Source: a virus | IMG/VR virus record: IMGVR_UViG_3300036831_000067 | Span: 8,082 to 72,081 of that record | DNA length: 64,000 bases | Reading direction: 5' to 3' (one strand) | Shown: one piece after another, positions 7,558-63,553 of the stretch | Layout: the number at the start of each line of letters is the position of its first letter | How positions within the stretch are numbered: position 1 is the first letter of the stretch | Made by a program: the position numbers and the translations under genes | The notes under the pieces: model-generated | The model's input: the letters and a program-made list of their open reading frames with translations, nothing else | Databases searched by the model: none | What the model was told of the DNA's origin: nothing

Positions 7558-8420
7558 TGGGCAAGCCCGCCATCATTACCGTCAACGGGACGGGTGTCCC
7601 CGACCCGTTCGGACCCGGGTTCTCCGGTGACATGGGCCGCTACCTCAGCCCGGCGGTGAGTTCCTGGGTGCCCGTCGCGTCTCAGTTCTTCGGGCCCTCC
7701 GTGGTCCCGCCGCCCCCGCCGATCTACTGGCAGCCGACCGGCTATCCGGCTGCCGTGGCACAGATGGGCGCCAGCATGTTGGCCGGTGTTGATGCCATCA
7801 GCGCCAACGTCGACAGGATGGAGCAAGAAGGTATCAATGGCCCGGGTGACCCGCTGAGCCTGAGCGGGTACAGCCAGGGTGCCATGGTCACCGGCTACTG
7901 GGCGGTGAACCTCTGTCTCAATCCCAACGGCAAGTACCACAACCGGCTGGCCGACGTGCAGAAGGGCGGCATCGTTCAATATGGTGACCCGTACCGTTGC
8001 CCTGGTATCGCTCGTGGCAATGACATCTGCGGCGTACCTGTGCCAGGCACTCAGGATGGTGCAGTTACCGGTGGCATATCTGGTCCATTAGACCTCACGC
8101 AGGAACAGACAGATGAACTCAATTTGAAATCATGCGCATTACCCGGAGATTTATATGCCAGTGCGCCGGTGGGTTCCAATCCCTGGACGGCGGAGGCTTC
8201 GGCCGGGAAGGTGGGCACGTCAATTTTCGCCGCAGTACAGAGCTTCACATTTATGAAATTGGTCAGGATTCTTCTGGACGTGTTCACGCCAATCGGCATG
8301 ATCGAAGAGATTTACAACGGTATGCAATTCGCCAGTCAGGGAACAAATGCGCCACATTGGCGATATGAGCCATTCGTGGTTCCCATGAGTAATTGGATAC
8401 TTAAAAACATAGGGGCCTAA
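7557..8420 (+). CDS. lysB: Lysin B-like cutinase-family serine esterase
   Basis: N-terminal TVNGTG; GYPAA; nucleophile elbow GYSQG (7866-7880); YGDPYR; PGDLY (Asp); PHWRY (His). Confidence 0.75.
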   Translation: MGKPAIITVNGTGVPDPFGPGFSGDMGRYLSPAVSSWVPVASQFFGPSVVPPPPPIYWQPTGYPAAVAQMGASMLAGVDAISANVDRMEQEGINGPGDPLSLSGYSQGAMVTGYWAVNLCLNPNGKYHNRLADVQKGGIVQYGDPYRCPGIARGNDICGVPVPGTQDGAVTGGISGPLDLTQEQTDELNLKSCALPGDLYASAPVGSNPWTAEASAGKVGTSIFAAVQSFTFMKLVRILLDVFTPIGMIEEIYNGMQFASQGTNAPHWRYEPFVVPMSNWILKNIGA

Positions 8421-45177: not shown

Positions 45178-45542
45178 ACGCATTGTCGGAGTTGGAAGTG
45201 CGGCTAGCCTACGAAAAGGGACATCTCAGCCAGAAGAACCTCAACCCCTTTCAGCACTGGGCGCTGTTGTACTGGCTCTACCTGAACCGGCGCACCGAGG
45301 TCGAGGACATCCAGGCCGAACTGATCCAGCAGACCTACAACCTGTTCCCCGAACGCTGGGGCGATCTGTACCGCTCTCACGTGCTCAACGAGCTTGGCAT
45401 CGCCGACGAGGCGGCGGAGGACGTCGTGGTTGACGACCTCGACGAACTCAACAAGTTCTACGAGCAGATGGAAAAGAAGCAGTGGATCCGGGGCGGTAAC
45501 CTGCCGGATGCCTTCACGCCGCAACGGGGCGTACGCGTATGA
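44482..45542 (+). CDS. Tail assembly chaperone, -1 frameshifted long form (joins to ORF 45183..45542)
   Basis: The -1 frame is open from 45159 (GKIQRLDALSELEVR...) to 45542; the second ORF has no good RBS. Confidence 0.85.
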
Positions 45543-48001
45543 CTACCGGCGGCGAGGACTTCGTCAGTGCCCGGCTGAATTTCGAGGTGCCCGTCGAGGG
45601 CATCCAGAGCATGCGCGAGATCAACCAGGAACTGGACCGCTTCCGCACCAACACCGAGGCGGCCGCGCGCGGCGCCGAGTCCTTCTCTCGCTACATCCAT
45701 TTGATGAGCGAGGCCCAGGAGCGCGCGATCCAGATGAGCCGCAACCTGACGACCCAGATGGAGCGCATGCTGGCTGTCCAGGAGCGCATGGGTGGCACGC
45801 CCGGGGGAACCGCCGTCCCGCAGGGCCATACCCAGCCCTGGGAGGGGGTCACCACCGGCATGGGAGGCGCCGATCGCCTTCCCGTCGGTGCCACCGGGGG
45901 CCATGTCCCGGCGATGCTGGAGAGCCTGGCGGCCAACGATCCCCGGGCCTACGTCAATGCCCGGGCGGCCTGGGGCGGCCAGCGCCCCGGTGACGTACCA
46001 ACGGTGTCGATCTCCGAGGACACTCTCGACAAGCTCGCCTCGCGTCTGTCCGCGCGTGACAAGCAACAGGCCCACGAGGAGGGCAAGCACCCTCAGACTC
46101 CGCACGCTCCCCGCACCACCAAGACCGGTGCCCCGCCCTGGGAGAGCTGGCATAACCGCGTCTCGGGCTGGACCCAGACAGCCGGATCGATGATGGGTGC
46201 GCTCGGCCCCGGAGGCAGCACCACAGGACTGCTCAGTATGGGCGCGCGCGCGCTGCAGGGCTGGGGAACTCGACTGGCCCAGGATGACCCGTCGGTGCCC
46301 AGCGGACCTGGCGGCACCGCACCGGGTGGTCGAGGGGGAGCGGTGCCCTCGGCAGTTCCCGGTGCCCCGGGAGCACCGGGTCTTCCCGGTGGTGAAGAGC
46401 AACCCGAGCAGGCCGGTGGCAGCGGTGGCCTGGGTTTCGGGTCGGCCATGGGGATAGGTGGCGCGGCCCTGGGTATCGGTCTGGCCGGGCTGGGGCTGTT
46501 CGAGAAGGGCGGCCAGCAGGTCCAGCAGTACCGATCCCTGGGCCAGATCCGGGGTGGGGGCTTCGCCCAAGGCTTCGGGTATGAGATGCAGGCCCGGATG
46601 ATGGCGCTGAATCCGTTCATCACCAATGAGCAGTCCCGTCAGATCATCCAGAGTGCGCTCACCCAGGGTTACACCGGCAAGGAATTCGACACAGTAACTG
46701 GCTTCATGTCGAGCAATCTCAAGGACATGAACCTCTCCGTGGCGGACTCAACCAAGATACTGCAGCAGGGGGTCAAGGGCAGCAACGAATCCATCCAGGA
46801 CCTGACCAAGAATTTGCACGACAATTTGGCCGCGCAGAAAGACTTGTCGAAGACCGGCTACGAAACACTGCCCGCGCGCCAGCAGGAAATGATGCAGACC
46901 TACGGCGGCATGGTAGGGGCCGGGGTTCCTGCAGGACCGGCGGCGACGCTGGGCACGATGGCGGGCCAGTGGTTTGCCAATCAGCCCGGAATGCAGGGAA
47001 TGGGTGGGCAATTAGGCGGGGCTGTCAGCGGGTCCTTGAATTTCCAGCAGATGATGCGCGAGTACGGCGGCCCCGGCGGAACCCGGATGACCAATATCCC
47101 GGGCTTCAACCCGCAGGATCCCGGGTCCTTCATGGAGGCACTGGGCAAGGATCCCGAGCGGGCCCAGGAAGCGATATGGAATACCATGAAGCGTTTGGCG
47201 CAGATGTCCAAGGGCAACATCTTCGTGTTCCAGGGCCTGTTGCAATCCACGTTGGGTCTCAGTCTCAATCGTCAGGACGCCGAAGCCTATTACAAGCAGG
47301 CCATGGCCGTGGGCTCAGGAAGCGATGATGATCCGATAGCCCAGGGGAAGAAGGCCGCGAAGGACGTAGAGGACCAGGCCAACAAGGGTGCTCCTAAGCC
47401 CGGTATGGGTCAACTGTTCGGGCGCGGGGGAATGGGGGCGCTGGGTTTCCTTGCCGGTGGCCTGGGCGGTCTGGGAGCCTTGGGTGCTTTGGGCCTGGGC
47501 GGTTTCGGTCTCGGCCAGACGCTCTCGGGTCTCTTCAGCGGGGGACAGCATCAGAACATCACGACAGATGAGATCTCCAAGAGGGTCGCCGGTCTCTACG
47601 GTAGTGATGCCGAGGTGGGCAGTGGGGAAACCTGGCACGCCTTCAACCCGAACGACAAGCAGCAACTCCAGGATCTGCAGAGCGGCAAGCTGCATGTCCG
47701 GCGCCAGGGCGAGAGCGGTCCCGGTATGACGGTGGACAAGCTGCCGTCGGCGCCCCAGGGAGACACCACGACCGGTACCGGGGCGAACCGAGGGGCTACA
47801 CGTACACATTCGTCCGCCCTCAGTGGCCAGTTGCACATCGTCGTCAAACCCGAGAGCATGCGCAGCGTTCTGGGAGTACCGGCCTACGTGCCGATCTCGG
47901 CCAACGAGCAGCAGGCCAACGCGGGCTACGGGACCGCCACCAAAAACAACTCCCCGCCCGGGGACACCATCACCTCGCGCGGCGCCCGGGGAGCGTTCTG
48001 A
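45539..48001 (+). CDS. Tape measure protein
   Basis: Follows the chaperone pair; Gly/Ala/Gln-rich, helical, with hydrophobic Gly-rich segments. Confidence 0.8.
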   Translation: MTTGGEDFVSARLNFEVPVEGIQSMREINQELDRFRTNTEAAARGAESFSRYIHLMSEAQERAIQMSRNLTTQMERMLAVQERMGGTPGGTAVPQGHTQPWEGVTTGMGGADRLPVGATGGHVPAMLESLAANDPRAYVNARAAWGGQRPGDVPTVSISEDTLDKLASRLSARDKQQAHEEGKHPQTPHAPRTTKTGAPPWESWHNRVSGWTQTAGSMMGALGPGGSTTGLLSMGARALQGWGTRLAQDDPSVPSGPGGTAPGGRGGAVPSAVPGAPGAPGLPGGEEQPEQAGGSGGLGFGSAMGIGGAALGIGLAGLGLFEKGGQQVQQYRSLGQIRGGGFAQGFGYEMQARMMALNPFITNEQSRQIIQSALTQGYTGKEFDTVTGFMSSNLKDMNLSVADSTKILQQGVKGSNESIQDLTKNLHDNLAAQKDLSKTGYETLPARQQEMMQTYGGMVGAGVPAGPAATLGTMAGQWFANQPGMQGMGGQLGGAVSGSLNFQQMMREYGGPGGTRMTNIPGFNPQDPGSFMEALGKDPERAQEAIWNTMKRLAQMSKGNIFVFQGLLQSTLGLSLNRQDAEAYYKQAMAVGSGSDDDPIAQGKKAAKDVEDQANKGAPKPGMGQLFGRGGMGALGFLAGGLGGLGALGALGLGGFGLGQTLSGLFSGGQHQNITTDEISKRVAGLYGSDAEVGSGETWHAFNPNDKQQLQDLQSGKLHVRRQGESGPGMTVDKLPSAPQGDTTTGTGANRGATRTHSSALSGQLHIVVKPESMRSVLGVPAYVPISANEQQANAGYGTATKNNSPPGDTITSRGARGAF

Positions 48002-49111: not shown

Positions 49112-49677
49112 GCCAGCTCTACGTCCGCACCACCTACGCCGGGCAATTCGCTCTGAACGTGCTCAACTTCCAGTCGCCGCTGTTCGGGACGATGATGAGC
49201 GCCCAGACCAAGAGGATGGCGGTGTACTTCCCGATCAAGGCCCAGCAGCCTGAGATCGAGTTCGAGGTCATCTTCGCCAGCGTCGGCGATTACCAGGCCT
49301 TCCAGGACTTCGTGCGCACCACTCAGCTCAACGCCCTGTCCAACGACACCGAGCCCGGAGTCACCTTGTGGTGGCCGCAGCGCAACATCCTGAACTGGTC
49401 GGGGACCATCCGTCAGTTCGCCGGTGGCGGCCAGCGGTTTGTTTATGCCCCCCGTGCCCGGTTCGTCGTTGACCTGGTGGACTCGCTGACGTCTCAGCGC
49501 ACCACTGTCTCCTCGACGGCCCCCATCTTCGACACCGTCTTCGGGTTGGGCAGCCCCGAGGGGGAGATGCAGTTGCCCAACACGTCGGGAGACACCGGGG
49601 GCGCCCCTGGGCTCGTGACGCCACCACCGTCCCCGGCATTACCCGGGCTGGGGCAATCGGCAGGAATACCGGTATGA
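49108..49677 (+). CDS. Minor tail / baseplate protein
   Basis: ATGA coupling on both sides within the baseplate operon. Confidence 0.7.
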   Translation: MSQLYVRTTYAGQFALNVLNFQSPLFGTMMSAQTKRMAVYFPIKAQQPEIEFEVIFASVGDYQAFQDFVRTTQLNALSNDTEPGVTLWWPQRNILNWSGTIRQFAGGGQRFVYAPRARFVVDLVDSLTSQRTTVSSTAPIFDTVFGLGSPEGEMQLPNTSGDTGGAPGLVTPPPSPALPGLGQSAGIPV

Positions 49678-52600
49678 CAGTCACTCCCGGCAGCCCGGGC
49701 AACGATCCCGGCATCGTCGGCAATGTGGGTACGCCCCCCACGGCAACCAATCCGTTCGGCAACAGCTTCGTCCAGACCCCGGTCAACGGAACGCCGGGCA
49801 GTTCGTCAGGGGCCCATCCCGCGCCGCCGTTCTATGTACCGCCGGGTCAGCAGACCCAGATCGGCAACACCACCCCGCCGCCCGAACGCACGTTGGTCTA
49901 TTCGCCGGATGTTCGTATTCTCGTCGCTCACAACGGTCAGCAGATCGACGTCAGCAACGATCTCGTCCGGGGCACCCTGATTCGCAAGGAGAATGCCGCC
50001 TCGACGCTGCTGTGGACCTGTCACAACAAGGGCCTGCGCTACACCAACGGGGGGCTCGGGAACCAGCCCCTGCTTTCCCGGATGGACCGGGTGACCTGCT
50101 ACATGAAGCGGGCGGGCAATTGGGTCCAGACCTTCTCCGGGTACCTGGACAGCATCCCCTACCTGCAGCTCTACCCCGGACTGGTGGACTTCAAGGCCAC
50201 CTGCACGCTCAAGCGATTGTTGTGCAGCTGGTGGAATCCCGGCCTTCCTGAGTCGGCATCTCTGCTGAACCAGTACGCCAACGAAACGCAGGAAACAGCC
50301 GGGGACGGGCAAGTGACCCTCGACGTTGGCATGGGTTCCATGCTGCGCGACATCCTGATCAAGGTGGGCGGGTGGGCACCCCAGAATGTCCACATCCAGA
50401 ACTTCCCGCAGGGTTTCCTGGATCTGCTGGATGCCCAGGAGAAGCAGCAGCCCGCCAACAACCAGCAGGCCACCAACTTCCGCCAGATGCTCGAGGGCAA
50501 CGTCAGCACCCCGGCGCCCGGGCAGATGGCCGGATACAACTCCTCGGCCGGACCTCCCGGGCCCGCCGGTTCACCCGGTCTTGCCGGTGCGGGTCCCGTC
50601 GGGTCGGGGACGATGTTCTATGTCGGTGAGATCATCGCGGCCACCGACCTCGCGGGTATGGGTCCCAATGTCCAGGACCAGAACCTGGCGCGCGGCCTGC
50701 AAACTGTGTCCACGACCGGCGAGGGATCCCGCGACAATGCCACCAAGGAGGCCTTTCAGCAGACCCAGAACGTGGCGACTTACTATGCCGCGTCGACCCG
50801 TAACACCGACGCCGCCATTATCGCGACGGCGACCGCGATGTGGGAAAGCACCAATGGACCCGCGATCAGGAATTTGTATAACCCGGCCCGGCCCGATTCG
50901 CAGCAATACAAGAATGACGGGCCGGGATATGACACCCGTGCGTGCGGGATTTTTCAGCAGGAAGACAATGGTGCGTGGGGCACCACCGCCGAGCAGATGA
51001 ATCCCCGTCAGGCGGCCTCCATGTTTCTCGCGGCGCTCAACAAATTCGACTGGAAGAATATGGACCCCGGGGTGGTGGCCTATGACGTGCAGCAGGCCCT
51101 GAACCCCTCCACGTACTCGGCCGGGGTCGACGGTCTCATCCCCGCCGCGACCACGGCGGTCCAGACCCTCCGCAAGACCCAGGCGGGGGCGACCAGCTCC
51201 GTGGTGCCCGCCGTGTCGAATCCCTTGAGTAATGTGGCGTCCTCGACGGCCCCCGCCTTGGGCATAGGGGGCACCGGCGCGACCAATACCCCGGGGGCCA
51301 CACCGGTTGTGCCCGTTTCCACCGGGAGCTTGGTCGGCAAGCCCAACCCCGATTCGGAGGGGGCGATCAACTGGGCGATCACCCAGCTCGGGAAGCCCTA
51401 TCACTACGGTGCCGCCGGACCTGATTCCTGGGACTGCTCGTCTCTTCTTCAGGGTGCCTTCAGGTCTATCGGCCGGGAGATTGGCCGTGACACTTGGCAC
51501 CAGCAGACCTCCGGCATCCCCATTTCCCCGTCCGCGATCAAACGTGGGGACGCACTGCAGTGTGAGGGCGGTGACCACACCATGCTGTGGCTGGGGGACG
51601 GCACCATCATCGAGGCCTCCACCGACGGAGTTCCGGTGCACCGGGTCAATGCCTATGTGCAGCCCGCGCAGGCCTTCGGGATCTACCGTTACGCCGACAA
51701 CGGTGGTCCCGATCCCAGTGCCCCGTTCGATCACACCGCTTCACCCGGGCCCGGTAATCCTCCCTATACGGGGTATTCCACCACGACGGGTGCGGCGGCC
51801 GGAGCAACTCAGGAGGGCATCGCCCAAAACCTTTTCGCCTACATCTTCGACCCGTCGCGATTCTTGACCTACACGTCGCAGATGTACGCGTCGGTCCCCG
51901 AAAAGGATTTCATCGACGCGCAGCCCCTCATCCAAATGGTGCAGTCGATATCCGGTGCGTGTCTGCGAAATTTCGCCAGCGCACCCAACGGTGATTTCAT
52001 CGCTTACTACCCCGATTTTTTCGGGATGGACGGAAAGCCCGCCGTCTTCACCCTGGAGGACATCGAACTCAAAGACCTGACGATGAACTTCAGCGACGAC
52101 GCGTTGGCCACCCACGTTTATGTCAATGCCGCCGACACCCCGCAGGGTCTGGAGAACCAGACCATGGGGTGGCTGAAGAGCCTGGGCTACGCCACGGTGG
52201 AGAACACGCTGCTTTATCAGCGGATGCGCCTGGTGGCTCCCGGTGACTTGGAGAACATGAGCGGCCAAGACCTGATGAAGCGCTTTGGGGTGCGCCCGCT
52301 GCAGGTCACCTACGGGACGGTCATGGCCGGTGGCGGGCTGGACTTTCTGATGGCGGTGCGCATCTTCATGACCAAGTGGGCCGAGCAGTACCAAAGCTCG
52401 ATCGCCATGACGTTCATGCCGGACCTGTTCCCCAGCATGCGGGTGCAGCTGTCCGGGCATAACATCCAGTTCTACGTCAGCGAGGTCACCCATCACTTCG
52501 ACTTCGAGCAGGGGTTCACCACTTCGGTGGTCGCAACTGCGCCGAGCAACCCCAATGTGCGCAACCTGTGGCCCACCAGCAATTCTCAGGTGCCCCCCGT

Positions 52601-52703
52601 TCAAGGAGGGCTGGGCTCCATAGTGAACGCCGCTGCCGATGCCCTGACCGCAGGGCTGGCCGCCGCCGTGTCTTTGGCCTCCGACATCGCGGCCCCGGGA
52701 TGA
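49674..52703 (+). CDS. Baseplate hub with lysozyme-like and NlpC/P60 peptidoglycan hydrolase domains
   Basis: ATAMWES...GIFQQ...WG (lytic transglycosylase-like); LGKPYHYGAAGPDSWDCSSL...RGD...HT (NlpC/P60 Cys-His); hub-like N- and C-termini. Confidence 0.85.
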   Translation: MTVTPGSPGNDPGIVGNVGTPPTATNPFGNSFVQTPVNGTPGSSSGAHPAPPFYVPPGQQTQIGNTTPPPERTLVYSPDVRILVAHNGQQIDVSNDLVRGTLIRKENAASTLLWTCHNKGLRYTNGGLGNQPLLSRMDRVTCYMKRAGNWVQTFSGYLDSIPYLQLYPGLVDFKATCTLKRLLCSWWNPGLPESASLLNQYANETQETAGDGQVTLDVGMGSMLRDILIKVGGWAPQNVHIQNFPQGFLDLLDAQEKQQPANNQQATNFRQMLEGNVSTPAPGQMAGYNSSAGPPGPAGSPGLAGAGPVGSGTMFYVGEIIAATDLAGMGPNVQDQNLARGLQTVSTTGEGSRDNATKEAFQQTQNVATYYAASTRNTDAAIIATATAMWESTNGPAIRNLYNPARPDSQQYKNDGPGYDTRACGIFQQEDNGAWGTTAEQMNPRQAASMFLAALNKFDWKNMDPGVVAYDVQQALNPSTYSAGVDGLIPAATTAVQTLRKTQAGATSSVVPAVSNPLSNVASSTAPALGIGGTGATNTPGATPVVPVSTGSLVGKPNPDSEGAINWAITQLGKPYHYGAAGPDSWDCSSLLQGAFRSIGREIGRDTWHQQTSGIPISPSAIKRGDALQCEGGDHTMLWLGDGTIIEASTDGVPVHRVNAYVQPAQAFGIYRYADNGGPDPSAPFDHTASPGPGNPPYTGYSTTTGAAAGATQEGIAQNLFAYIFDPSRFLTYTSQMYASVPEKDFIDAQPLIQMVQSISGACLRNFASAPNGDFIAYYPDFFGMDGKPAVFTLEDIELKDLTMNFSDDALATHVYVNAADTPQGLENQTMGWLKSLGYATVENTLLYQRMRLVAPGDLENMSGQDLMKRFGVRPLQVTYGTVMAGGGLDFLMAVRIFMTKWAEQYQSSIAMTFMPDLFPSMRVQLSGHNIQFYVSEVTHHFDFEQGFTTSVVATAPSNPNVRNLWPTSNSQVPPVQGGLGSIVNAAADALTAGLAAAVSLASDIAAPG

Positions 52704-53705: not shown

Positions 53706-54476
53706 GTGGCTATGCCGGTGGGGTTCAAACACAGTGCAGAGACGCGCGTCCGCATGTCGGCTGCTCACAAGGGGAGGGTCAAGACCCCTGAGCATCAGGC
53801 CAAAATCACGGCAACGCTGCGGGCGCTTCCTCCTCGTGGTTTGGAACACCGACGTAAGTTGTCCGAGGTTGGCAGAGGGAGGCGTCACTCGCCCGAAACC
53901 AGGGCCAAGATGTCGGCGACGCACAAGATCCTCGTCAAGACACCCGAACATTGTGCCAACATCTCGAAGGCCAAAAGGGGTGTCCCCCAGCGTGTTCCTC
54001 AATCGGCCGAGCAACGAGAGAAAAATCGATTGGCTCAGTTGGGGAACAAGAGAGCCAGGGGATACAAGAACACCCCAGAGGCTTGTGCTCGCACCAGTGA
54101 GCGCATGAAGAAGATGTGGGCCGAGGGAAAATTTGAGGGGGAGTCACGTCCTTATTGGGGTAAATCTGCTGGTATCCATGCTGGAGTGGAGATGAGATGT
54201 CTTAATTCCGAAGGTGTTTTTGCTCAGGATTGTGAAGCTAATGGAATCGCTTGGCTCTATGAACCTCGGCGCTTCAAGTTGTCCTGGTGTTGCTATACCC
54301 CAGACTTCTATCTTCCTGAGTTCGACATCTGGATAGAGGTTAAGGGCCGTCCCGGGCAACCAGGAAACTGGACTAGGAAAATCGAAACATTTAGGGCTGA
54401 GACAGGCAAGACGTTGATTTTAGTGTTCCAGAACGAATTGTCGTCAGCTAAGTATGTAGGTGATCAAAATTTCTAG
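53706..54476 (+). CDS. Free-standing homing endonuclease: NUMOD3 repeats plus PD-(D/E)xK nuclease
   Basis: HSAETRVRMS and HSPETRAKMS repeats; WLYEP...YTPDFYLP..DIWIEVKG; low GC. Confidence 0.85.
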   Translation: MAMPVGFKHSAETRVRMSAAHKGRVKTPEHQAKITATLRALPPRGLEHRRKLSEVGRGRRHSPETRAKMSATHKILVKTPEHCANISKAKRGVPQRVPQSAEQREKNRLAQLGNKRARGYKNTPEACARTSERMKKMWAEGKFEGESRPYWGKSAGIHAGVEMRCLNSEGVFAQDCEANGIAWLYEPRRFKLSWCCYTPDFYLPEFDIWIEVKGRPGQPGNWTRKIETFRAETGKTLILVFQNELSSAKYVGDQNF

Positions 54477-56211
54477 GACTCCCGATCAGATCGCCGCTCA
54501 GATAATGGCTTCGCTGGCCGTTACGTTGCCCACCCTGTCCTGTGGGATCGGTACCCCGGAGCGCAAGATCATCGACGCCTGTGCCGAGGCGATCAGCGCG
54601 GCCTACATCGACCAGTACCTGGTCGGTTCGTTGCTGGACATCGACACCAAGGCCGGGATCGAGCTGGAACAGTTCGTCGGGATCTTCGGTTACGGCCGCC
54701 TGCAGGGCACTTCTTCCACCGGCACGGTCGTGGTGACCCTGACCGTGGCGTCCAACATCGACTTCACGATTCAGCAGGGCGCCCAGTTCTACACCCCGAC
54801 CGGGATTTCCGGGACGACCACCCAGTTGTACTTCTCCTCCACCTCGACGGTGGTGCTGCCCGCCGGGGACATGACGGTGAGTGTGCCGGTGCAGTGCACC
54901 ACGGTGGGGTCGGTGGGCAACCTACCCCCGGGCTCGATCACCAGCATGGCGGCCACGATCGGATCGGCGAGCGTGACCAACCTGCAGGCCCTAATCGGGG
55001 GCACCGATGTCGAGACCGATGCGGAGTTGAGGCAAAGGTTTAAGGACACCTTCTTGCGCAACGTGGCGGGGACCGCCGACTACTACATCGCGCTGTGCCA
55101 GCAGAACAACAACGTCACCAGATGCGTGGCCTACGGCCCGATCGCGCTCTACACCACGCAGATCGCCGCGCCCGCCACCACCCTGACGCTGCCGGTCACT
55201 CAGGATGTCAAGTACGTATGGCCCGGTGAGTCGAGTTGCTTCTTCGACCTGGGCCAGGCCGACGAGGTGTTCTACTCCGACGTCGACGACTACACCCTGT
55301 CCTCGGGGGCCAGCCCGGTGTTCACCCGGATCTCCACTGGCGCGATCGTTGCGGGCACCATCTTGGATCTGGAGTTCCAGTACACCACCGCCTCCTCGCG
55401 CAACAATCCGTCAGCCGGGATCACCAACAAGGTCGACATCTTCTGCGACGGTGTGGCGCCCTATGCGGTGGCCGAGACCACCGTGCTCACCGCGACGGCG
55501 CTGTCGTCCAGCTCGGCCGACCCCCTCTACACCGGGAACTTCGTGCGGGTGGGTTCTGCGGGCAGCCCGACGGCGGGCAACCGGTTCACCCGGCTGGGCA
55601 ACGTGCCGATAGTGAACTTCCCGACCACCGTCACCGTGGGCTCCACCGTTTATGTAATGGGGACGCACTACTTCCAGCTGCAGGACGTCACTCTGCTGCA
55701 GGGCAGCCGGTTGGAGTCCTCGGGTATCGAGTGGGCCGCTGCAGGACCGGCGAACGGGACCCAGTTGGTGTTGCACTACGTCTACAACCAGGTCCCCGAG
55801 GTGCTCGACGCGGTGATGGGCACCAGCAAGCAGCTGACGACCGACGTGCTGGTGCACCAGGCCGAGTACACCTACCTGCAGCCCTGCCTGAACATCGAGT
55901 ACGACCGTTCCTACTCGGTGTCGGTGGTCAATGCCGCCATCGCCAGCCGTCTGACAAGTTGGATCGGCGCCCTGCCGTTCGGTGCCCAGGTCAAGTTGTC
56001 GTCGCTGACCACCGTGGTCACCCAGGTGCTCGGGGTGATCGATTGCAAGATCACCACCAGCACCGACAATCCCTCGCGGTACGGCGTCCAGATGTTCGCC
56101 AACAGCTCCGATCCCACCCCGGCCACGGTCCAGACCACCGACTTCAAGCTCGACGACAGCATGGTCGCGTACTTCCTGGACGCGAAGATCACAAGAATCG
56201 CGACGCCCTGA
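54460..56211 (+). CDS. Baseplate J-like wedge protein
   Basis: 'GSVGN.PPGSIT' and 'GGTDVETDAELRQR' motifs. Confidence 0.9.
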   Translation: MIKISRTPDQIAAQIMASLAVTLPTLSCGIGTPERKIIDACAEAISAAYIDQYLVGSLLDIDTKAGIELEQFVGIFGYGRLQGTSSTGTVVVTLTVASNIDFTIQQGAQFYTPTGISGTTTQLYFSSTSTVVLPAGDMTVSVPVQCTTVGSVGNLPPGSITSMAATIGSASVTNLQALIGGTDVETDAELRQRFKDTFLRNVAGTADYYIALCQQNNNVTRCVAYGPIALYTTQIAAPATTLTLPVTQDVKYVWPGESSCFFDLGQADEVFYSDVDDYTLSSGASPVFTRISTGAIVAGTILDLEFQYTTASSRNNPSAGITNKVDIFCDGVAPYAVAETTVLTATALSSSSADPLYTGNFVRVGSAGSPTAGNRFTRLGNVPIVNFPTTVTVGSTVYVMGTHYFQLQDVTLLQGSRLESSGIEWAAAGPANGTQLVLHYVYNQVPEVLDAVMGTSKQLTTDVLVHQAEYTYLQPCLNIEYDRSYSVSVVNAAIASRLTSWIGALPFGAQVKLSSLTTVVTQVLGVIDCKITTSTDNPSRYGVQMFANSSDPTPATVQTTDFKLDDSMVAYFLDAKITRIATP

Positions 56212-59105
56212 TGCCCAATCAAGATCCATGGCCCTACATGCCGCCCAAGAGCACCGAGCTGCTCTTGATGCACTGCGACGACACGGTCTATACCGCCACC
56301 CCCGACACGAACCTCTACAAGCTCGTGGACGCCATCTGCGGTACCACCGGCGCCTCGGCACTGATCAACGAAATTTTTCTGGCCCGGCTCAACGGTGCAC
56401 TGGAGACGATCTTCTACAGCGACCTCGACTACGCCTTCTCCAAGATCAACTTCCTGTCGCGCAGCCCCGAGGAGAGCTATCCCTACAACCCGCTGGTCGA
56501 CATGCTCACCGCCGACCAATGGAACGAGGTCCGGATCAAGGACGCGTGGTACCGGGCCAGGATCCGGGACTACTTCACCGCCTGCGGAATGGGCCCCACC
56601 ATCGACGCCATCCGGTTGTGCGTGTTGGCCGGACTCAGTTGCGACTGCGACGTGTACGAGGTGTGGCGCTACATCGACGGTTTCGGGCTCACTTCGTCAC
56701 TGGGACGTTCTCCGAGTTCCGCACGCAACGAACTGGTGATCGCTCCGCACAAGACCTTACTGGCGCCCGACGAGATGCGCCTGATCCGTGACATGCTGTC
56801 GCGGTTCCTCACCCTCGACACCGTCATCACGGTCAATGCCAACGGGCTGGCGGTGCGAACCCCGGTGCCGATCGCCGCCGCCGCCGCCGACAGCAGCTAC
56901 TACGAGGTGCAGAAGGTGGTTCAGCCCACTGCCCTGATGACTCAGCTGCCGCCTCCGGATCTGCTGCCGGTTGACCTGTTGCCCAGCGAGCAGTGGATGT
57001 ACAGCCCGAACCCCACCACGGCGCCCTACGGCGCGTTCAACATGACCCAGGAGTACAGCTACTTCTACCTGGCCGGGGGTGGCCGCAACAGCCCCATCGA
57101 CAGCGTCACCTACGGCGTCATCAACTCCCCGCTGTCGAGCAAGATCTTCGTCTACGAACTGTTCGGCACCTTCAGTGGTGTCACCACGACCGTTCCCTCC
57201 GGCAGTTGGATCGCCGGGGCGCTCAACACCCAGCTGTTCCAGTGGACCCGGGTCAGCTTCCCGGCCGATCAGTACCCCATGGAGGCGGCCGTCGCTACCG
57301 GGGTCACCAACCTGATCAACGCCATCAATGCCAACCCCGGTCAGTTCGTGATCATCGGGTACAACATCGGTGCGATCATCGCCAGCGAGGTCTATGACCA
57401 GATCCGCACCGGGTCGCTGACCAGCCGCCAGAATCAGTTCCTGGGCGGGGTGGTGTTCGGTAATGCGCGCCGCCAGCGCGGGTTCACTTTCCCGGGCAAC
57501 GACTACACCCATGGGCAGGGCATCGACGGCAGTGACCTGCTCAGCGACTGCCAGTCGCTGTGGTATGAGTTCGTGGTCCCCGGCGACGTCGCCGCCGATA
57601 TCGATCTCGGGTACGGGTCCGGAGCCAAAGAGGACCAGGCCGGTCAGTGGGCTGTCAGCATGTTTGAGGCCGTCTACCCCAACTACAGCGGCAATGTCAG
57701 CGCCGTCGTGACATCGCTGCCCCTCCCGACCCCACCCACCGCAAGCCAACTCGTCCAGACCATCGTTGACACGTTCTACGGGGTGCCCCCGGACCCCAAC
57801 ACCGCGCACGGTCAGTACCAGAGCTACCAGCCTCTGCTGGACAAGGGGGACTACCGCAGCTGTATCCAGATCGCCGCCGACTACGTCAACAGCCTGGCCA
57901 CCGCGAGCGGGGCGGCATTGGGCCTGGTCCCCGTGACTTATCCGGTGTTCGTCTACGAGGTGGGCGGCACGGAGCTGACCAGCGCGACCGACAGTTGGTT
58001 CTCGTCGAGTCTGGACTCGCGCATGACGTACTGCTGGGTCAACTGGCCCGCCGCCTCTTATCCCATGGACACCTCGGTGGCCAATGGGGTCAGTAACCTG
58101 ATCACCCTGATCAGCCGCAACCCCGGCAGGTTCGCGCTCATCGGGCGCAACCAGGGGGTCCGGGTCATCTCGGCGCTCTACGCCCAGTTGCAGACCGGGG
58201 GGCTGCTGGCACACCGCCTGGCCGATCTGCAGGGGGTGGTGACCTACGGCAGCCCGGTGCGTCAGGCCGGGAAGATCTTCCCCGGCGGCACCGACCCGGG
58301 CGGACACGGTATCGACGGCACCCGTATGTCGTCGACGCCGTCGCTGTGGTGGGACTTCGCCGATCCTCGTGACTCACTGGCCGTCGTGGGCGATGACACC
58401 AACGGGGTATGGATGACCAACCTGTTCGACGCGATCGCCAGTGGTTACACCGGCAACCTGAGCGCGATCACGGGCCAGTTCCTGTCCGCGCCGGTGAACG
58501 TGACGGTGATGGCGTCCAACCTCATCAACGTCATCTACCACGGCGACGGGTTCAGCTACTCCACCAACACCCCGCTGACCGGGGATGGCCGCACCGCCTA
58601 CGAGATCGGGCGCGACTATCTGAACACCTTCGCCAGCATGAGCGAGACCTACATAGCTGCGCCGTCCAACCCTCTGAGTACCTATCTGCCCGAGGCGAAC
58701 TTCGAGTCCTTCAATGTCGTCGCCACCTACGGTCCGTGGCGGACCTACGAGATCGCCGACAGTCCCGATTCCTATCCCGGCGGGAAATTCGGTATCCACC
58801 CCGCGCAGCCACCCGCCGTCAACCCGGACGGGACCGCTTACAACTTCCCGTGGGCTTCTCAGGCGGCCTACGTCACCTTCAAGCAAAACCAGGTCATCAG
58901 CATCGGCGGGCAGGCCGACAACATCCACTACCGGCTTCCGGCGGCGGTCTCCTCGACGACCAAGGAGGTGTTCCTGCCGGAGTATGCCATTGCCTATTCA
59001 CCCCCGGCCCAGGACACCACCGTCAGTACCTCGCTGACCCGTCGCCGGGGCAAGACGGTGAACCAGTCCGGCAGCAATCAGCGTTTCGTGAGGACTTCAC
59101 CGTGA
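56211..59105 (+). CDS. Baseplate wedge protein carrying two inserted cutinase-like domains lacking the catalytic Ser
   Basis: ATG 56211 coupled to baseplate J; GYNIG (57357-57371) and GRNQG (58143-58157) at the GxSxG position. Confidence 0.8.
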   Translation: MPNQDPWPYMPPKSTELLLMHCDDTVYTATPDTNLYKLVDAICGTTGASALINEIFLARLNGALETIFYSDLDYAFSKINFLSRSPEESYPYNPLVDMLTADQWNEVRIKDAWYRARIRDYFTACGMGPTIDAIRLCVLAGLSCDCDVYEVWRYIDGFGLTSSLGRSPSSARNELVIAPHKTLLAPDEMRLIRDMLSRFLTLDTVITVNANGLAVRTPVPIAAAAADSSYYEVQKVVQPTALMTQLPPPDLLPVDLLPSEQWMYSPNPTTAPYGAFNMTQEYSYFYLAGGGRNSPIDSVTYGVINSPLSSKIFVYELFGTFSGVTTTVPSGSWIAGALNTQLFQWTRVSFPADQYPMEAAVATGVTNLINAINANPGQFVIIGYNIGAIIASEVYDQIRTGSLTSRQNQFLGGVVFGNARRQRGFTFPGNDYTHGQGIDGSDLLSDCQSLWYEFVVPGDVAADIDLGYGSGAKEDQAGQWAVSMFEAVYPNYSGNVSAVVTSLPLPTPPTASQLVQTIVDTFYGVPPDPNTAHGQYQSYQPLLDKGDYRSCIQIAADYVNSLATASGAALGLVPVTYPVFVYEVGGTELTSATDSWFSSSLDSRMTYCWVNWPAASYPMDTSVANGVSNLITLISRNPGRFALIGRNQGVRVISALYAQLQTGGLLAHRLADLQGVVTYGSPVRQAGKIFPGGTDPGGHGIDGTRMSSTPSLWWDFADPRDSLAVVGDDTNGVWMTNLFDAIASGYTGNLSAITGQFLSAPVNVTVMASNLINVIYHGDGFSYSTNTPLTGDGRTAYEIGRDYLNTFASMSETYIAAPSNPLSTYLPEANFESFNVVATYGPWRTYEIADSPDSYPGGKFGIHPAQPPAVNPDGTAYNFPWASQAAYVTFKQNQVISIGGQADNIHYRLPAAVSSTTKEVFLPEYAIAYSPPAQDTTVSTSLTRRRGKTVNQSGSNQRFVRTSP

Positions 59106-62100
59106 CCAGTCCCAGCGCGCTGGACGGAATGTACTACAACTACCACTGGCCTCTGACGCTGGTGAACCTGCTCAACGACCTCATCGGCGCCCAGCAGTCC
59201 TCACCGAACACCCCGGCACCTCCGCTGCTGCCGGTGGTTCGGGTGTGGTTCTCTCAGCCCAGGCCCAGCACGGACCCCTCCGGCGAGATCCTCACCGTGA
59301 ATTTCAAGCTGCCGGTGTCGATCGGGGAGTTCTCCATCGAGATCCTGCGGGTGTCGTGCACGATGCAGGTCTGGTACCAGGACAGGTCCAACAACTGGAT
59401 CCAGATGCCCGACGAGAACTACCAGCCCGTGCAGATCACGCTGTCCTCGTCCCAGAGTGTGGGCTGGTACACGTGGCACGTCTACACCTACCCGATCGTC
59501 GCGAAGGCGATCCAGTTCCGCATCGTCCGCCGGGCCGACCCCACGCTGGGCAACAGGCCCTACAACATCGGGCTGCGTAACGGACTGCTGCGCCGCAACA
59601 TCTACAACCGCTCGGCGGGGACCCAGACCATGGAATCCGAGCAGGATGTGCTGGGCGACACCATCACCAAGTACATCCAGGACTGGGACGCCTCCCAGGC
59701 CATCGATGACAACCCAAACACGTTCTGGCGGTCGGCACCGCAGCCCGATCCCTCGGCGGTGGCCTCGCTCTACCTGAACTTCCTCAACCCCGACAACACC
59801 GGGCAGCTGGTCGACGCGTTGTACATCGATCCGGTCTACACCGGTCAGAACCTCAACGTCTACTACAGCAACGACGACACGGTGGGCACCCTCACGTTGT
59901 CACCGGTCGGCCTGCCGCCCGACACCGACGAGAACACGGCATGGAAGGCCGGGGTGGGACGCTCGGATATCTCCGCTCTGACGGGCACCAGCATCTACCA
60001 GTTCCCGGTGGCCTGGGGACCCCTGGTGAAACAGGACTGCTGGGTAGGGGTGCAGTGGGCTCCGGACTTCTCCCCGGCCGCCTCCAATGCGGTGCAGCAG
60101 ATCACCATCAACGGCAACGTCACCGGCGGGACCCTTCTTCTGTACTTCGAGGGCCACCCCACCCCACCCATCTCCTACACCCCCAGCACCAACGCCAACG
60201 TCATCCAGACGGCCCTGGCCGCCGTGCCCGAGATAGGAACCGGCAACGTCGCGGTCACCGGCCCGGCCGGTGGTCCCTACATCGTGGTCTTCCAGGGGGC
60301 CCTGGGCGGGGTGGCCATCCCCACCATGACCTATGACGACACGGACCTGACCGGAACCTCGATCGTCGTCATTATCCAGACCAACACCGTTGGCGGGGTC
60401 TCCAGCCTGCCCCCGCAGAACCCGGTACTGTTCCAGGTCAGCCCGGGAATGAACGCGGTGCAGACCATCACCATCAACGGCACGGCTACCGGCGGCTCGT
60501 TTCAGCTGAGCCTGGACGGGGTGAACTACACGACCGCGATCCCCTGGTCGGCCACCGGCAGCAACATCCAGACGGACCTGGCCGCCCTGGCGGCGATCGG
60601 TACCGGCAACGTCCTGGTCGTCGGGGATGCCGGGGGGCCGTGGTCGGTGACCTTCCAGGGTGCGCTGGCCCAGCAGAACGTCGCCACCATGGTCGCGACC
60701 AGTGCCCTGACCGGCGGGACCCCGGCGCCCTCGGTGAAGGTGATCACCACCACCACCGGATCACCCCCGCCCAACCCGGGCAGTGCCCAGTACTGGCCGA
60801 GGCTGTACTACGACGTCGGCGCCGGGGAGATCGTCCTGGAACTGACCAACGGCACCACCGCCCAGACCTACTCGGCCGCGCTGTCCCCGATATTCGTCAA
60901 GAATGCTCCGCTGGCGATCGTGGCCGGGTGGAGATATAACCCGTCGACCGTGTTCATTTCGGTGGTACGCGCCGACGGTACCCAGATCGGCACCACCACC
61001 GCCACCCCCAGCAATCTGCCCACCCAAATCACCCTGGACGGCGAGGTGGGGTATCAAGACTTCCGGGGCATCATGACCGCCACCGTCGTCAAGCTGGAGA
61101 ACTGGACGGCCGGGCAGTCGGCCTTTCAGGCCAACCCCACGATGTACGTCAACCCCAACCCGACGCAGCCCAACCCCAACACCGGCGTCGTGCCCAGCAC
61201 CACCCTGGACAACGCCATTTTCGCGGTCGACTGGACACTGCAGGACATGGGGTGCGGCGGCGGACACTCCAGCTTCTACACCTCGAAGATGTGGACTCCG
61301 ATCTTCGCCAATTACATCGCTCAGAAGGGTTGGCTGTACTTCCCCCAGCCGGTGATGCTGAAGTTTTTGCAACTGGAGTTCTCCAATCTGACCGAAGAGA
61401 GCTACCCGGTCTACGACTCGGGCGTACAGGTGATGTACCTGACGTTCCCACTCTCGGTCACCCTGGCCTCACCGACCCCCTCTTCGCTGGCCACCGTGGC
61501 CGGACTGCTCTCCGTTGACGGGCAGGCGCTCGGGGGCGGCATCGGCAGCGTTAACTGGCTGAACTCTTCGTCGATCAACGCGGCGGTCCGGTCGGTGTTC
61601 GGCACCACCGTGCCGCCGCTCACCGTGCAGACCGGCCCGGGCACCGTCTCGACGTCGCTGCCCAACACCGTGGGCTCGACGGCCTCGGGCACCAGCGTCG
61701 AGCAGGGCACCGCGTGGGTGTATCGCCGAGCGCTGCCCAACACCCAGGTGCTGGCCTCCCAGCAGCTCAATGCCATCACCTCCAACACCGGCAGCCAGGG
61801 CGTGGTCCCGGCCACCAACAGCTCCATCCCCAACATCTCCGGGTCGATGACTCCGCTGATCACCTTCTCCCCGGGGTCCACGTCACTGCCTCTGCAGGGG
61901 GCGGACTGGTGGATCGTGCCCGGCCAGACCCTGGCGCTTCCAGCCACCGTGATGAACGGACTGACCCAGAACACCCGGGTGGCCCTGAATCGTAAGGCCA
62001 GCAGCGCCTACCGAATGCGGTTCACCGCCACGTGCATTCACCAGTACGAGACCGCGACTGCCGTGCGCGACGCGGCGATCGCCTACTACGCCGGGGTCCG

Positions 62101-63553
62101 TGAGATCAGTGCGTTCATCACCAACTACATCGCCACCCAGGATCCCCCGGTCTTCTCGTTCAGCCCCTACGATCCCCACCAGTGGACTTTCGTCAACGTG
62201 CGACAGCTCGACACCGGACCGATCTCCACGGCGGGCATCACCTATCAGATCCAAAACCCCCTGTTCGACACCGACCTGAGTAACTGGACCCCGGTGCACG
62301 GCATCTGGTCACTGGATCCCGCCCAGGGCAAGTGGCAGTACGGGGCGGCGACGGTCACCGCCGACGGCACCGAGAAGGAGCTGCTCTCCGAGGAGATGAC
62401 GGCCTGGCCCCAGGTGACTGCGGGCGCCCATTTCTCCGTCAGCGTCTGGGTGCAGTGGTTCGACGCCACCTCGACCGGGCAGCCCGTCATCCTGGCGGCC
62501 AACTACTACACCGACAGCGGGGCGACCTACGTCAGCCAGCAAACCGCGTCGATGGCGGCCACCGGGACCAACCTGTGGGCCACCGGCGGGGAGGGTGGTG
62601 CGCAGCTCACCGGGAGCTTCACGGTGCCCAGTGGGGTGGACACCATCCTGATCAGTCTGATCGTGGGCGCCACCGCCACGGCCGGAAAGTTCTGGTTCGA
62701 CACCGTGCTGCCCGCCTCTACCGACACCGTGGAGGCCACTACCTACATCGACCTGATCACCACCAGCACCTTCGTCAAGGTGGACTGCTCGTTCAGTGAC
62801 TCCGGGCTGGTGCGTTCCGATGACATGTGGGCCGAGGTCGACCTGACCAACACCAATATCTCGGCAACGCAGCTGGCCTGGTACACCACCACCATCCCGT
62901 CCACGATTCCTTCGGGCACCTGGGGGGACACCATCGCGAAGTGGACCGACCCCGTCATCACCTGGGGCGAGCCGTTCTCCGAGGTCGCGATCACCATTGA
63001 CCCCAACATGGTCTACAACGGCAAGCGGGTCCTGCACTTCACCCGGGCGGCCGGGGCTGAAGAGGCCGGGATCCAGGTGCGCCAGGTCACCAACTTCGTC
63101 AGGAACGGTTTATTCCGGCTGTGCATTACCTATCTCAAGCTCACCGCCAGCGCCAACCAGATCGTGTTGCGGTTGCGCCGGGTCAGCGACGGGGTCTACA
63201 TCTACGAGGAGGCCATCACCCCGCAGGTGGGCACGTGGTGGACCTACAAGACCCACTTCCAGGAGATCCCGGACTCACCGGATCAGATCTATACCCTGGA
63301 GGCGGTGCTGCAGGGCGATGCCGCCGACGACATCTACCTCAACGACACCTGGACCGAGATCGCGAACATCCGCTACTTCGCGCGCCTGGGCGGTTCGGGG
63401 GCCTTCCTGCACGATGTCACCGAACTGGCCTACAACGACACCGCGATCGTGTCCACCACCGTGCCGGTCAACGAACTCGTGGTGCAGTCCACCATTCTGT
63501 CGCCGACGGCCTGGGCATACGGTGCGCGGTTAACCCCCAACTACCTGCGCTGA
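59102..63553 (+). CDS. Large baseplate/tail protein with two 'NAVQ.ITING..TGG' domains and CBM-like domains
   Basis: GTGA coupling at 59102; tandem repeat domains at ~60085-60760; NPLFDTDLSNW carbohydrate-binding-like module. Confidence 0.8.
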   Translation: MTSPSALDGMYYNYHWPLTLVNLLNDLIGAQQSSPNTPAPPLLPVVRVWFSQPRPSTDPSGEILTVNFKLPVSIGEFSIEILRVSCTMQVWYQDRSNNWIQMPDENYQPVQITLSSSQSVGWYTWHVYTYPIVAKAIQFRIVRRADPTLGNRPYNIGLRNGLLRRNIYNRSAGTQTMESEQDVLGDTITKYIQDWDASQAIDDNPNTFWRSAPQPDPSAVASLYLNFLNPDNTGQLVDALYIDPVYTGQNLNVYYSNDDTVGTLTLSPVGLPPDTDENTAWKAGVGRSDISALTGTSIYQFPVAWGPLVKQDCWVGVQWAPDFSPAASNAVQQITINGNVTGGTLLLYFEGHPTPPISYTPSTNANVIQTALAAVPEIGTGNVAVTGPAGGPYIVVFQGALGGVAIPTMTYDDTDLTGTSIVVIIQTNTVGGVSSLPPQNPVLFQVSPGMNAVQTITINGTATGGSFQLSLDGVNYTTAIPWSATGSNIQTDLAALAAIGTGNVLVVGDAGGPWSVTFQGALAQQNVATMVATSALTGGTPAPSVKVITTTTGSPPPNPGSAQYWPRLYYDVGAGEIVLELTNGTTAQTYSAALSPIFVKNAPLAIVAGWRYNPSTVFISVVRADGTQIGTTTATPSNLPTQITLDGEVGYQDFRGIMTATVVKLENWTAGQSAFQANPTMYVNPNPTQPNPNTGVVPSTTLDNAIFAVDWTLQDMGCGGGHSSFYTSKMWTPIFANYIAQKGWLYFPQPVMLKFLQLEFSNLTEESYPVYDSGVQVMYLTFPLSVTLASPTPSSLATVAGLLSVDGQALGGGIGSVNWLNSSSINAAVRSVFGTTVPPLTVQTGPGTVSTSLPNTVGSTASGTSVEQGTAWVYRRALPNTQVLASQQLNAITSNTGSQGVVPATNSSIPNISGSMTPLITFSPGSTSLPLQGADWWIVPGQTLALPATVMNGLTQNTRVALNRKASSAYRMRFTATCIHQYETATAVRDAAIAYYAGVREISAFITNYIATQDPPVFSFSPYDPHQWTFVNVRQLDTGPISTAGITYQIQNPLFDTDLSNWTPVHGIWSLDPAQGKWQYGAATVTADGTEKELLSEEMTAWPQVTAGAHFSVSVWVQWFDATSTGQPVILAANYYTDSGATYVSQQTASMAATGTNLWATGGEGGAQLTGSFTVPSGVDTILISLIVGATATAGKFWFDTVLPASTDTVEATTYIDLITTSTFVKVDCSFSDSGLVRSDDMWAEVDLTNTNISATQLAWYTTTIPSTIPSGTWGDTIAKWTDPVITWGEPFSEVAITIDPNMVYNGKRVLHFTRAAGAEEAGIQVRQVTNFVRNGLFRLCITYLKLTASANQIVLRLRRVSDGVYIYEEAITPQVGTWWTYKTHFQEIPDSPDQIYTLEAVLQGDAADDIYLNDTWTEIANIRYFARLGGSGAFLHDVTELAYNDTAIVSTTVPVNELVVQSTILSPTAWAYGARLTPNYLR

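Follow-up and report, generated by a model that had tools for sequence, protein, structure and literature searches.

We describe here a gene of the window, by which we mean the whole stretch of DNA that was analysed, 64,000 nucleotides corresponding to positions 8,082 to 72,081 of the IMG/VR virus record IMGVR_UViG_3300036831_000067; the complete record has 72,081 bases and is estimated to be 48% complete. To judge from its genes, the source is an uncultured, contractile-tailed actinophage of mycolic-acid bacteria, the host group being read from the hosts of its relatives (Mycobacterium, Rhodococcus and Gordonia, all of them mycolic-acid bacteria). The gene in question, at 56211..59105, sits in the tail module and encodes a 964-residue protein in which a scaffold of the DUF7297 family is interrupted by an insertion of 514 residues (57126..58667). 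The insertion consists of two tandem domains, D1 and D2, that resemble lysin B (LysB) and cutinases and in both of which the nucleophile serine is replaced by asparagine. The parts of the gene, and the free esterase with which they are compared, are as follows.

56211..59105, + strand: DUF7297 virion protein with tandem LysB-like insertion, 964 residues (Pfam, PHROGs)
56211..57125, + strand: N-terminal DUF7297 scaffold, residues 1-305, aligning with insert-less homologues of 445-494 residues up to 'SVTYGVIN'
57126..57926, + strand: D1, first predicted LysB/cutinase-fold domain, residues 306-572
57927..58667, + strand: D2, second predicted LysB/cutinase-fold domain, residues 573-819
58668..59105, + strand: C-terminal DUF7297 scaffold, residues 820-964 and the stop codon, matching the C-terminal third of insert-less homologues from 'NPLSTYLPEANFESF' onward
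7557..8420, + strand: free lysin-B-type esterase, a comparator outside the baseplate module (phrog_102, E 2.1e-28)

The frame is uninterrupted over its 964 codons, and the start at 56211 is backed by an N-terminus that is conserved in homologues. Pfam DUF7297 (PF23970) is matched with an E-value of 3.4e-193 (642.9 bits against a cut-off of 27) in two stretches that flank the insertion, the best of which pairs residues 1-307 with positions 1-307 of the 449 in the profile. Among PHROGs the protein matches phrog_2813, 'virion structural protein', at E 2e-180. The insertion point was placed with a protein alignment of 12 insert-less and 10 insert-bearing proteins, the latter including P0072 with its single-domain insert. 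The two kinds of protein align on both sides of the insertion, which falls between 'SVTYGT(I/L)x' and a conserved '..E.NFE.F' block, a point spanned by ~3 to 7 residues in the insert-less homologues.

Comparison of the protein by tblastn with 50,697 phage records matched 576 of them, mostly cluster C mycobacteriophages but also Phrappuccino, Rhodococcus phage Finch and some Gordonia phages. In none of the 576 is 80% or more of the query covered; the hits listed extend over ~1,350 bases and pair only with query residues 1 to ~310 and ~820 to 961. In GenBank the cluster C homologues are labelled 'minor tail protein' or 'virion structural protein'. A megablast search of the gene against the same 50,697 records gave no match, nor did a scan of IMG/VR for peptide patterns of the insert by itself.

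Two other members of the family show variation in what is inserted, and where. P0072, a DUF7297 protein of 698 residues, is interrupted at the same site by a single LysB-like domain with a threonine elbow (GHTLG). When it is aligned with the others, its first half falls on D1 and its last part on the end of D2; it could have arisen from a D1/D2 pair by deletion, or represent a form that preceded the duplication. The insert-less homologue L015:2952-4433 carries a different insertion, of ~40 residues, elsewhere in the scaffold (alignment columns 178-216), so that the DUF7297 protein tolerates insertions at more than one point.

In D1 the motifs FPADQYPM (57258), GYNIG (57357), FGNARR (57456), PGDVA (57579) and AHGQY (57804) can be read, and in D2 WPAASYPM (58044), GRNQG (58143), YGSPVR (58245) and PRDSL (58365). 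A preliminary description of this DNA, made from its letters, had set these beside YPAA, GYSQG, YGDPYR, PGDLY and PHWRY in the free esterase at 7557..8420, and all of the motifs that it listed are present at their places. Reading of the codons also confirms its central observation: the serine of GYSQG, encoded by AGC (7872-7874), is replaced by asparagine, encoded by AAC, both in the D1 elbow GYNIG (Asn385, 57363-57365) and in the D2 elbow GRNQG (Asn647, 58149-58151). Neither pentapeptide contains another serine. As placed by alignment, D1 keeps both of the remaining catalytic residues, Asp459 (57585-57587) and His533 (57807-57809). D2 keeps the acid, Asp721 (58371-58373); its canonical histidine position is deleted, and His777 (58539-58541) lies a few residues upstream.

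The likeness of the insert to LysB, visible in several sequence comparisons, greatly exceeds chance. D1 and D2 are 34% identical to one another (E 8e-44), and the 964-residue protein matches PHROG 102, a lysin B family labelled 'endolysin', in two stretches at E 1e-54. Sequence similarity also links the insert to the D29 LysB chain 3HC7 (E 1.7e-5), the GYSQG of D29 being aligned on GYNIG. In Pfam the Cutinase and PE-PPE families are found for the 964-residue protein only below cut-off, and Cutinase is below the family cut-off for the free esterase too (E 7e-4); NCBIfam yields only a sub-threshold match to Culp6, of 16 bits against a cut-off of 570. The parallel with the free esterase drawn in the preliminary description does exist, but the similarity is remote (BLASTP E 3e-5 over 88 residues), and this remoteness rules out that the insert is a recent copy of the phage's own lysB.

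Structure prediction points the same way. An AlphaFold2 (AF2) model of the 514-residue insert, made with a 77-row alignment, has a mean predicted local distance difference test score (pLDDT) of 90.5 and a predicted template modelling score (pTM) of 0.58, and pLDDT is ~90 or more over most of D2. With Foldseek, the top PDB match of the model is 3hc7 (E 4e-10), followed by the mycobacterial cutinase-like proteins Rv3802c and MSMEG_6394 and then by acetyl-xylan esterases and fungal cutinases. Superposition with VIA-align gives a Z-score of 22.3 for D1 (model residues 5-256) on 3hc7, with a root mean square deviation of 3.1 Å over 222 aligned residues, and of 14.0 for D2 (model residues 268-504) on the Glomerella cutinase 3dd5_C. 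According to these models, both domains take the LysB/cutinase α/β-hydrolase fold, as the preliminary description had supposed when it named prediction and overlay on D29 LysB as the way to check it. Named matches in BFVD at E ≤0.001 are stand-alone lysin B, esterase or hydrolase proteins of 211-507 residues, several rows being unnamed; the exceptions are one weak tape-measure match (E 3.1e-4, TM 0.19) and one giant-virus lipase, and no tail protein in BFVD was matched convincingly.

Proteins of the same architecture were sought in protein and virus databases. A search of 5.8 billion proteins returned the window protein and four like it (P0002-P0005), 41-53% identical over the insert, with the nearest at 53%, together with two Sipho_Gp37 tail proteins whose LysB-like domains have serine. 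A scan of IMG/VR gave 21 loci, four of them with a complete insert-bearing gene (L003, L004, L006 and L020, of which L003 and L004 encode an identical protein); L002 and L005 are cut by contig ends and the remaining loci are insert-less. P0008 and P0009 came from the search of representative proteins described below. Ten insert-bearing proteins were therefore compared: window, P0002-P0005, P0008, P0009, L003, L006 and L020. Codons could be read for three of the relatives (L003, L006 and L020), the six with P numbers being represented by protein only. Their elbow residues are these.

Window: D1 elbow Asn; D2 elbow Asn
P0002: D1 elbow Asp; D2 elbow Gly
L003, L020: D1 elbow Asp; D2 elbow Gly
L006, P0003, P0008: D1 elbow Ser; D2 elbow Gly
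P0004, P0005, P0009: D1 elbow Gly; D2 elbow Gly

The D1 elbow codon is AAC in the window, GAC in L003 and L020 and AGC in L006, and the D2 codon is AAC in the window and GGG or GGC in L003, L006 and L020. Among the ten proteins, asparagine at the elbow is private to the window phage, in D1 and in D2. The preliminary description had read the same substitution in two diverged copies as a sign that asparagine was selected; with serine, aspartate or glycine in D1 and glycine in D2 of the other nine proteins, the survey of homologues rules out asparagine as a conserved, selected feature of the family. Two points lean towards the earlier view. Asparagine is rare (3 of the 177 domain instances considered below) and yet occurs twice in this one protein, and the D2 asparagine needs two changes, AAC being two nucleotide steps from the glycine codons (GGC/GGG) of L003, L006 and L020; the aspartate in D1 of the sister lineages is one step from asparagine. 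Two asparagines in one protein are, on this showing, not what random decay would predict.

Elsewhere in the insert, Asp459, His533 and Asp721 are invariant in a five-sequence alignment of insert-bearing homologues, and the first two are present in all insert-bearing rows of a larger alignment. The canonical D2 histidine is found in 8 of the 10 proteins, the window protein and P0002 having instead a short deletion with a histidine just upstream. The loop motifs GNPRRQ..FPG..DPGGHG are kept in both domains, and all ten relatives, at 35-60% identity, keep the reading frame of the insert intact throughout its 514 codons.

The wider family was explored with a profile of four inserts (window, L003, L006 and L020) searched against 1.84 billion representative proteins. 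This found 446 proteins at E ≤0.001, 103 of them at ≤1e-30, and the best 150 of the 446 were used. When 189 domain hits in 155 proteins were aligned to a single-domain hidden Markov model, 177 hits covered the elbow column, with serine in 143, glycine in 27, asparagine in 3, alanine in 2, aspartate in 1 and threonine in 1. Two of the three asparagines are the window protein's own and the third is in P0066. Without a coverage filter, the elbow is other than serine in 30 of 111 instances from proteins longer than 450 residues and in 4 of 67 from shorter ones; DUF7297 proteins supply 13 of these 34 non-serine instances. Among the 129 full-length instances, the acid is kept in 25 of 25 Ser-less domains and the histidine in 20 of 25, compared with 98 and 95 of 104 Ser-bearing domains, counts in which the rows are not phylogenetically independent. 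This conserved Asp-His pair in domains that have no nucleophile is accounted for by none of the explanations so far.

Many of the longer proteins resemble components of tails. We scanned 26 of them against PHROGs, a non-random sample comprising all the long Ser-less proteins and some others, and 17 match tail-protein families. Seven phrog_2840 proteins have an N-terminal LysB-like module, with serine at the elbow in P0045 and P0054 and glycine in P0037, P0048, P0085, P0105 and P0126, and two long proteins carry a beta-lactamase-type domain, 'minor tail protein with lysin activity'. Tandem pairs of a Ser-bearing and a Ser-less domain recur in multi-domain proteins made up of LysB domains only and having no tail-family match (P0014 and P0039). 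In cultured cluster C phages the match to P0054 begins only at residue 306, and none of 779 records covers at least 80% of it; tail-borne LysB modules appear to be a feature of uncultured relatives. By these matches, LysB-like modules, with serine or without it, are common in the tail proteins of uncultured actinophages.

The history of the elbow was examined in a quick maximum-likelihood tree of 43 domain sequences, with support from the Shimodaira-Hasegawa-like approximate likelihood ratio test (SH-aLRT). All ten D2 domains form one clade (SH-aLRT 99), none of them with serine. All ten D1 domains form another (96), together with a 249-residue protein bearing GYSQG, and within it the three Ser-bearing D1 copies are scattered among the Ser-less ones. 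The tree suggests that D2 lost its serine once, before the ten proteins diverged; with so ancient a loss, the asparagine in D2 of the window protein would be derived. D1, if serine was ancestral, would have lost it at least three times: in the window protein and P0002, in L003 and L020, and in P0004 with P0005 and P0009. A tree of the scaffold only recovers the same two insert-bearing groups, each supported at 99.

Selection on the Ser-less domains could be gauged from one pair of relatives. Between L003 and L020, which have aspartate in D1 and glycine in D2, the ratio of nonsynonymous to synonymous substitution rates (dN/dS, Nei-Gojobori) is 0.39 for D1 and 0.23 for D2, and for the scaffold 0.15 in the N-terminal and 0.22 in the C-terminal part; in more distant pairs the synonymous sites are nearly saturated, and these pairs say little. 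In addition, Ser-less D1 copies are no more diverged from an outgroup than Ser-bearing ones. In these relatives the Ser-less domains are under purifying selection. Because dN/dS is low in Ser-less relatives and the Ser-less lineages show no extra divergence, a retained, non-catalytic role is favoured. Of the earlier argument for selection rather than decay, the part that denies decay thus finds support in the Ser-less relatives, and the part that invokes a selected asparagine falls away.

The genes that surround 56211..59105, with their PHROG matches, include the following.

41778..43367: tail sheath (phrog_2839)
45539..48001: tape measure (phrog_2836)
49674..52703, + strand: 1009-residue virion protein (phrog_2810)
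54460..56211, + strand: baseplate wedge (gp6 / baseplate-J-like), 583 residues (phrog_6 'baseplate wedge subunit', E 2.8e-73)
59102..63553, + strand: giant minor tail protein, ~1483 residues (phrog_2840 'minor tail protein', E 0)

Tail sheath and tape measure genes thus lie upstream of the insert-bearing gene and a minor tail protein gene downstream. The stop of the baseplate wedge gene overlaps the start of 56211..59105 (TGATG), and the latter overlaps the gene of the giant minor tail protein by GTGA; by these overlaps it is translationally coupled to both neighbours. The module is internal to a virion protein encoded between baseplate and tail genes, rather than a stand-alone gene in a lysis context. 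The preliminary description had called the product a baseplate protein. This agrees with the coupling to the phrog_6 gene, the match to PHROG 2813 and the tail or virion names of homologues in GenBank, and it is on such gene order and annotation that the placement rests.

Several neighbours have features of their own. The giant minor tail protein at 59102..63553 has no LysB-like module here, unlike some of its uncultured phrog_2840 relatives. It contains two alike segments of ~100 residues, '...QQITINGNVTGGTLLLYFEG...' and '...VQTITINGTATGGSFQLSLDG...', and its residues 449-555 are similar to part of the tail-sheath PHROG 2839 (E 9e-19). Sheath and fibre-like protein thus seem to share a repeat domain. 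Directly upstream of the baseplate-J-like gene, a 256-residue open reading frame (ORF; 53706..54476, + strand) matches phrog_314 (E 5.5e-12) and phrog_9019 (E 2.6e-10), which are homing-endonuclease-like and resolvase-like, and may be a mobile endonuclease inserted among the structural genes. The 1009-residue virion protein (49674..52703) has a weak endolysin-like stretch (phrog_700, residues 375-486, E 2.8e-5) as well as tail-protein-like stretches, and may be a tail-associated cell-wall hydrolase. Outside the tail module, the region of the free lysin B is adjoined by a 1286-residue ORF (8921..12781, + strand) very rich in charged and Pro/Gln/Arg low-complexity stretches.

Among known proteins, the closest parallel to the insert is D29 LysB (gp12, PDB 3HC7), a mycolylarabinogalactan esterase. 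The two are alike in fold, in homology and in the loops that follow the elbow; the same aspartate is found in both insert domains and the same histidine in D1, and the host group, mycolic-acid actinobacteria, is shared. LysB differs in being a soluble product of the lysis cassette, whereas the insert lacks the nucleophile serine, occurs as two copies in tandem and is embedded in a virion protein of the baseplate region, in a phage that has a separate, intact LysB at 7557..8420. Among lysis-cassette LysBs the serine is reported to be absolutely conserved (PMC6116114). The scaffold, on the other hand, has its counterpart in the DUF7297 / PHROG 2813 protein of cluster C mycobacteriophages (Catera, Alice and Myrna-type), Phrappuccino and Rhodococcus phage Finch. 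Here the N-terminal 305 and C-terminal 145 residues are homologous at 53-56% identity (tblastn), and the gene likewise comes after the baseplate-J-like gene, but the protein of these cultured phages has ~450 residues and no insertion.

Fusion of the same domain family to virion proteins is seen in the uncultured actinophage tail proteins (phrog_2840, phrog_346, beta-lactamase-type and Sipho_Gp37), which come in Ser- and Gly-bearing versions. Their modules are N-terminal or internal in fibre-like proteins, whereas the present pair is inserted into DUF7297, with asparagine rather than glycine in each dead copy. An enzyme fold borne on a tail protein for entry is also known from virion-associated tail lysins such as the TM4 tail lysozyme motif (PMC6116114). 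Such lysins are active and directed at peptidoglycan; the insert has an esterase fold that is inactive by the serine criterion. For the substitution itself there is a eukaryotic analogue, and it is an analogy only: in ABHD5 (CGI-58) the serine of GxSxG is replaced by Asn153 while Asp301 and His327 are kept, and this lipid-droplet protein acts at lipid surfaces without lipase activity, according to PMC9694394. D1 shares with it the GxNxG elbow and the retained aspartate and histidine. ABHD5 differs in being a cytosolic co-activator and in belonging to another branch of the α/β-hydrolase superfamily.

We infer that the pair are retained pseudo-esterases, derived from a virion-borne esterase. The module would have begun as such an esterase (D1) beside a partner (D2) that had been inactivated long ago, and D1 would then have lost its serine repeatedly in separate phage lineages, with both domains still under purifying selection. 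These losses, coupled with continued selection on both domains, suggest that in the window phage the pair works without ester hydrolysis. As to what it does, we hold with middling confidence, by analogy, that it docks the baseplate on ester lipids of the host, holding them and not cutting them. The two pseudo-esterases would keep the lipid-ester cleft of LysB and, sited in the outer part of the baseplate, would act by holding: the baseplate would dock on acyl- or mycolyl-ester glycolipids of the mycolic-acid outer membrane. At lysis, the mycolate layer would be cut by the separate lysin B at 7557..8420, which is intact. That surface lipids of this kind can matter to infection is known from trehalose polyphleates, surface acyl-ester glycolipids which PMC10465359 describes as required for infection by phages BPs and Muddy. 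A broader proposal is more tentative, and we put it forward as a possibility on which we would not count: that actinophages of mycolic-acid bacteria carry an undescribed class of virion-borne lysin-B modules, the Ser-bearing ones cutting mycolyl or acyl esters at entry and the Ser-less ones acting as lipid-ester receptors, in which an elbow asparagine or aspartate, next to the retained Asp-His pair, would be selected as a ligand for the ester or for a metal ion.

Several observations weigh against docking by retained pseudo-esterases. The arrangement of D1 relative to D2 is uncertain, as the pTM of 0.58 indicates. Purifying selection is measurable in relatives, not in the window phage's own lineage. 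A model of the DUF7297 scaffold (L016, 22 rows) has a mean pLDDT of only 51.4, and a scaffold-family profile searched against PDB sequences gave no hits at E up to 10, so that the place of the protein in the baseplate is read from gene order and annotation only. In the scaffold tree the insert-less L015 nests beside one of the insert-bearing groups, so that a phage can lose the module and still keep the gene. Finally, the insert has changed more quickly than the scaffold, with identities of about 0.40-0.60 against 0.6-0.8, as would fit a module in contact with the host but fits equally a loosely constrained decoration. The last two points also favour a structural role, in which the dead domains would be a folded spacer or strut at the baseplate periphery, for example setting the geometry of the adjacent giant tail protein, with no specific lipid ligand. 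The freedom of the elbow to vary among serine, glycine, aspartate, asparagine and threonine and the lack of any insert in cultured cluster C phages are in keeping with this as well. A pure spacer, however, would not be expected to keep the aspartate in every full-length Ser-less domain and the histidine in most, or to keep the loop motifs in both domains, and the two-step path from the glycine codon of the three relatives with DNA to the asparagine codon of D2 suggests that the position matters. We regard a purely structural role as rather unlikely.

Decay would be another way to explain recurrent loss of the serine: the esterase function lost, the domains would be neutral relics, kept only because their deletion would disrupt folding of the host protein. 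The absence of the module from most of the DUF7297 family is consistent with this, as is the weaker constraint on D1 than on any other region of the one close pair (dN/dS 0.39). Such a relic is hard to reconcile with an insert frame that stays open throughout the ten proteins despite their divergence, with dN/dS well below 1 in Ser-less copies, and with the confidently folded model of D2, a domain that has apparently been without serine since before the ten proteins diverged; we consider it improbable. Asp nucleophiles and chemistry by histidine and aspartate only are known in other α/β hydrolases, and the domains might accordingly still be catalytic, the Asp-His pair activating water or a substrate hydroxyl, or the elbow aspartate of relatives acting as nucleophile, in a weak or altered virion-borne esterase or transferase. 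In favour of this are the nearly equal rates at which aspartate and histidine are kept in Ser-less and Ser-bearing domains and the three relatives with an elbow aspartate. But asparagine is not a nucleophile, glycine, which offers no chemistry, is the commonest replacement (27 of the 34 non-serine instances), D2 of the window phage has lost the canonical histidine position too, and the absolute conservation of serine reported for lysis-cassette LysBs (PMC6116114) tells against activity without it. Residual catalysis is in our view very improbable.

Retained pseudo-esterases that hold host lipids would bear on a poorly understood matter, the recognition and crossing of the mycolic-acid outer membrane by phages. 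In passages of two accounts, LysB is treated purely as a lysis-stage enzyme (PMC6116005, PMC6116114), and in the parts of the open-access literature that were covered we found no description of a tail-borne LysB domain. The preliminary description did not recognise this form of host recognition as described; within the literature covered its claim stands, with the reservation that the module is far from confined to this phage, being common in tail proteins of uncultured actinophages. The LysB fold in baseplate and tail proteins is a concrete candidate for the contact between the particle and mycomembrane lipids, a module whose serine is kept in some lineages and which others appear to have inactivated more than once and still retained. 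Nature's own series of serine, asparagine, aspartate and glycine at one position offers ready variants by which binding and cutting could be told apart. Should the dead domains bind specific ester lipids, they would represent a new type of receptor-binding module, and could serve as lipid-specific probes for mycolic-acid bacteria.

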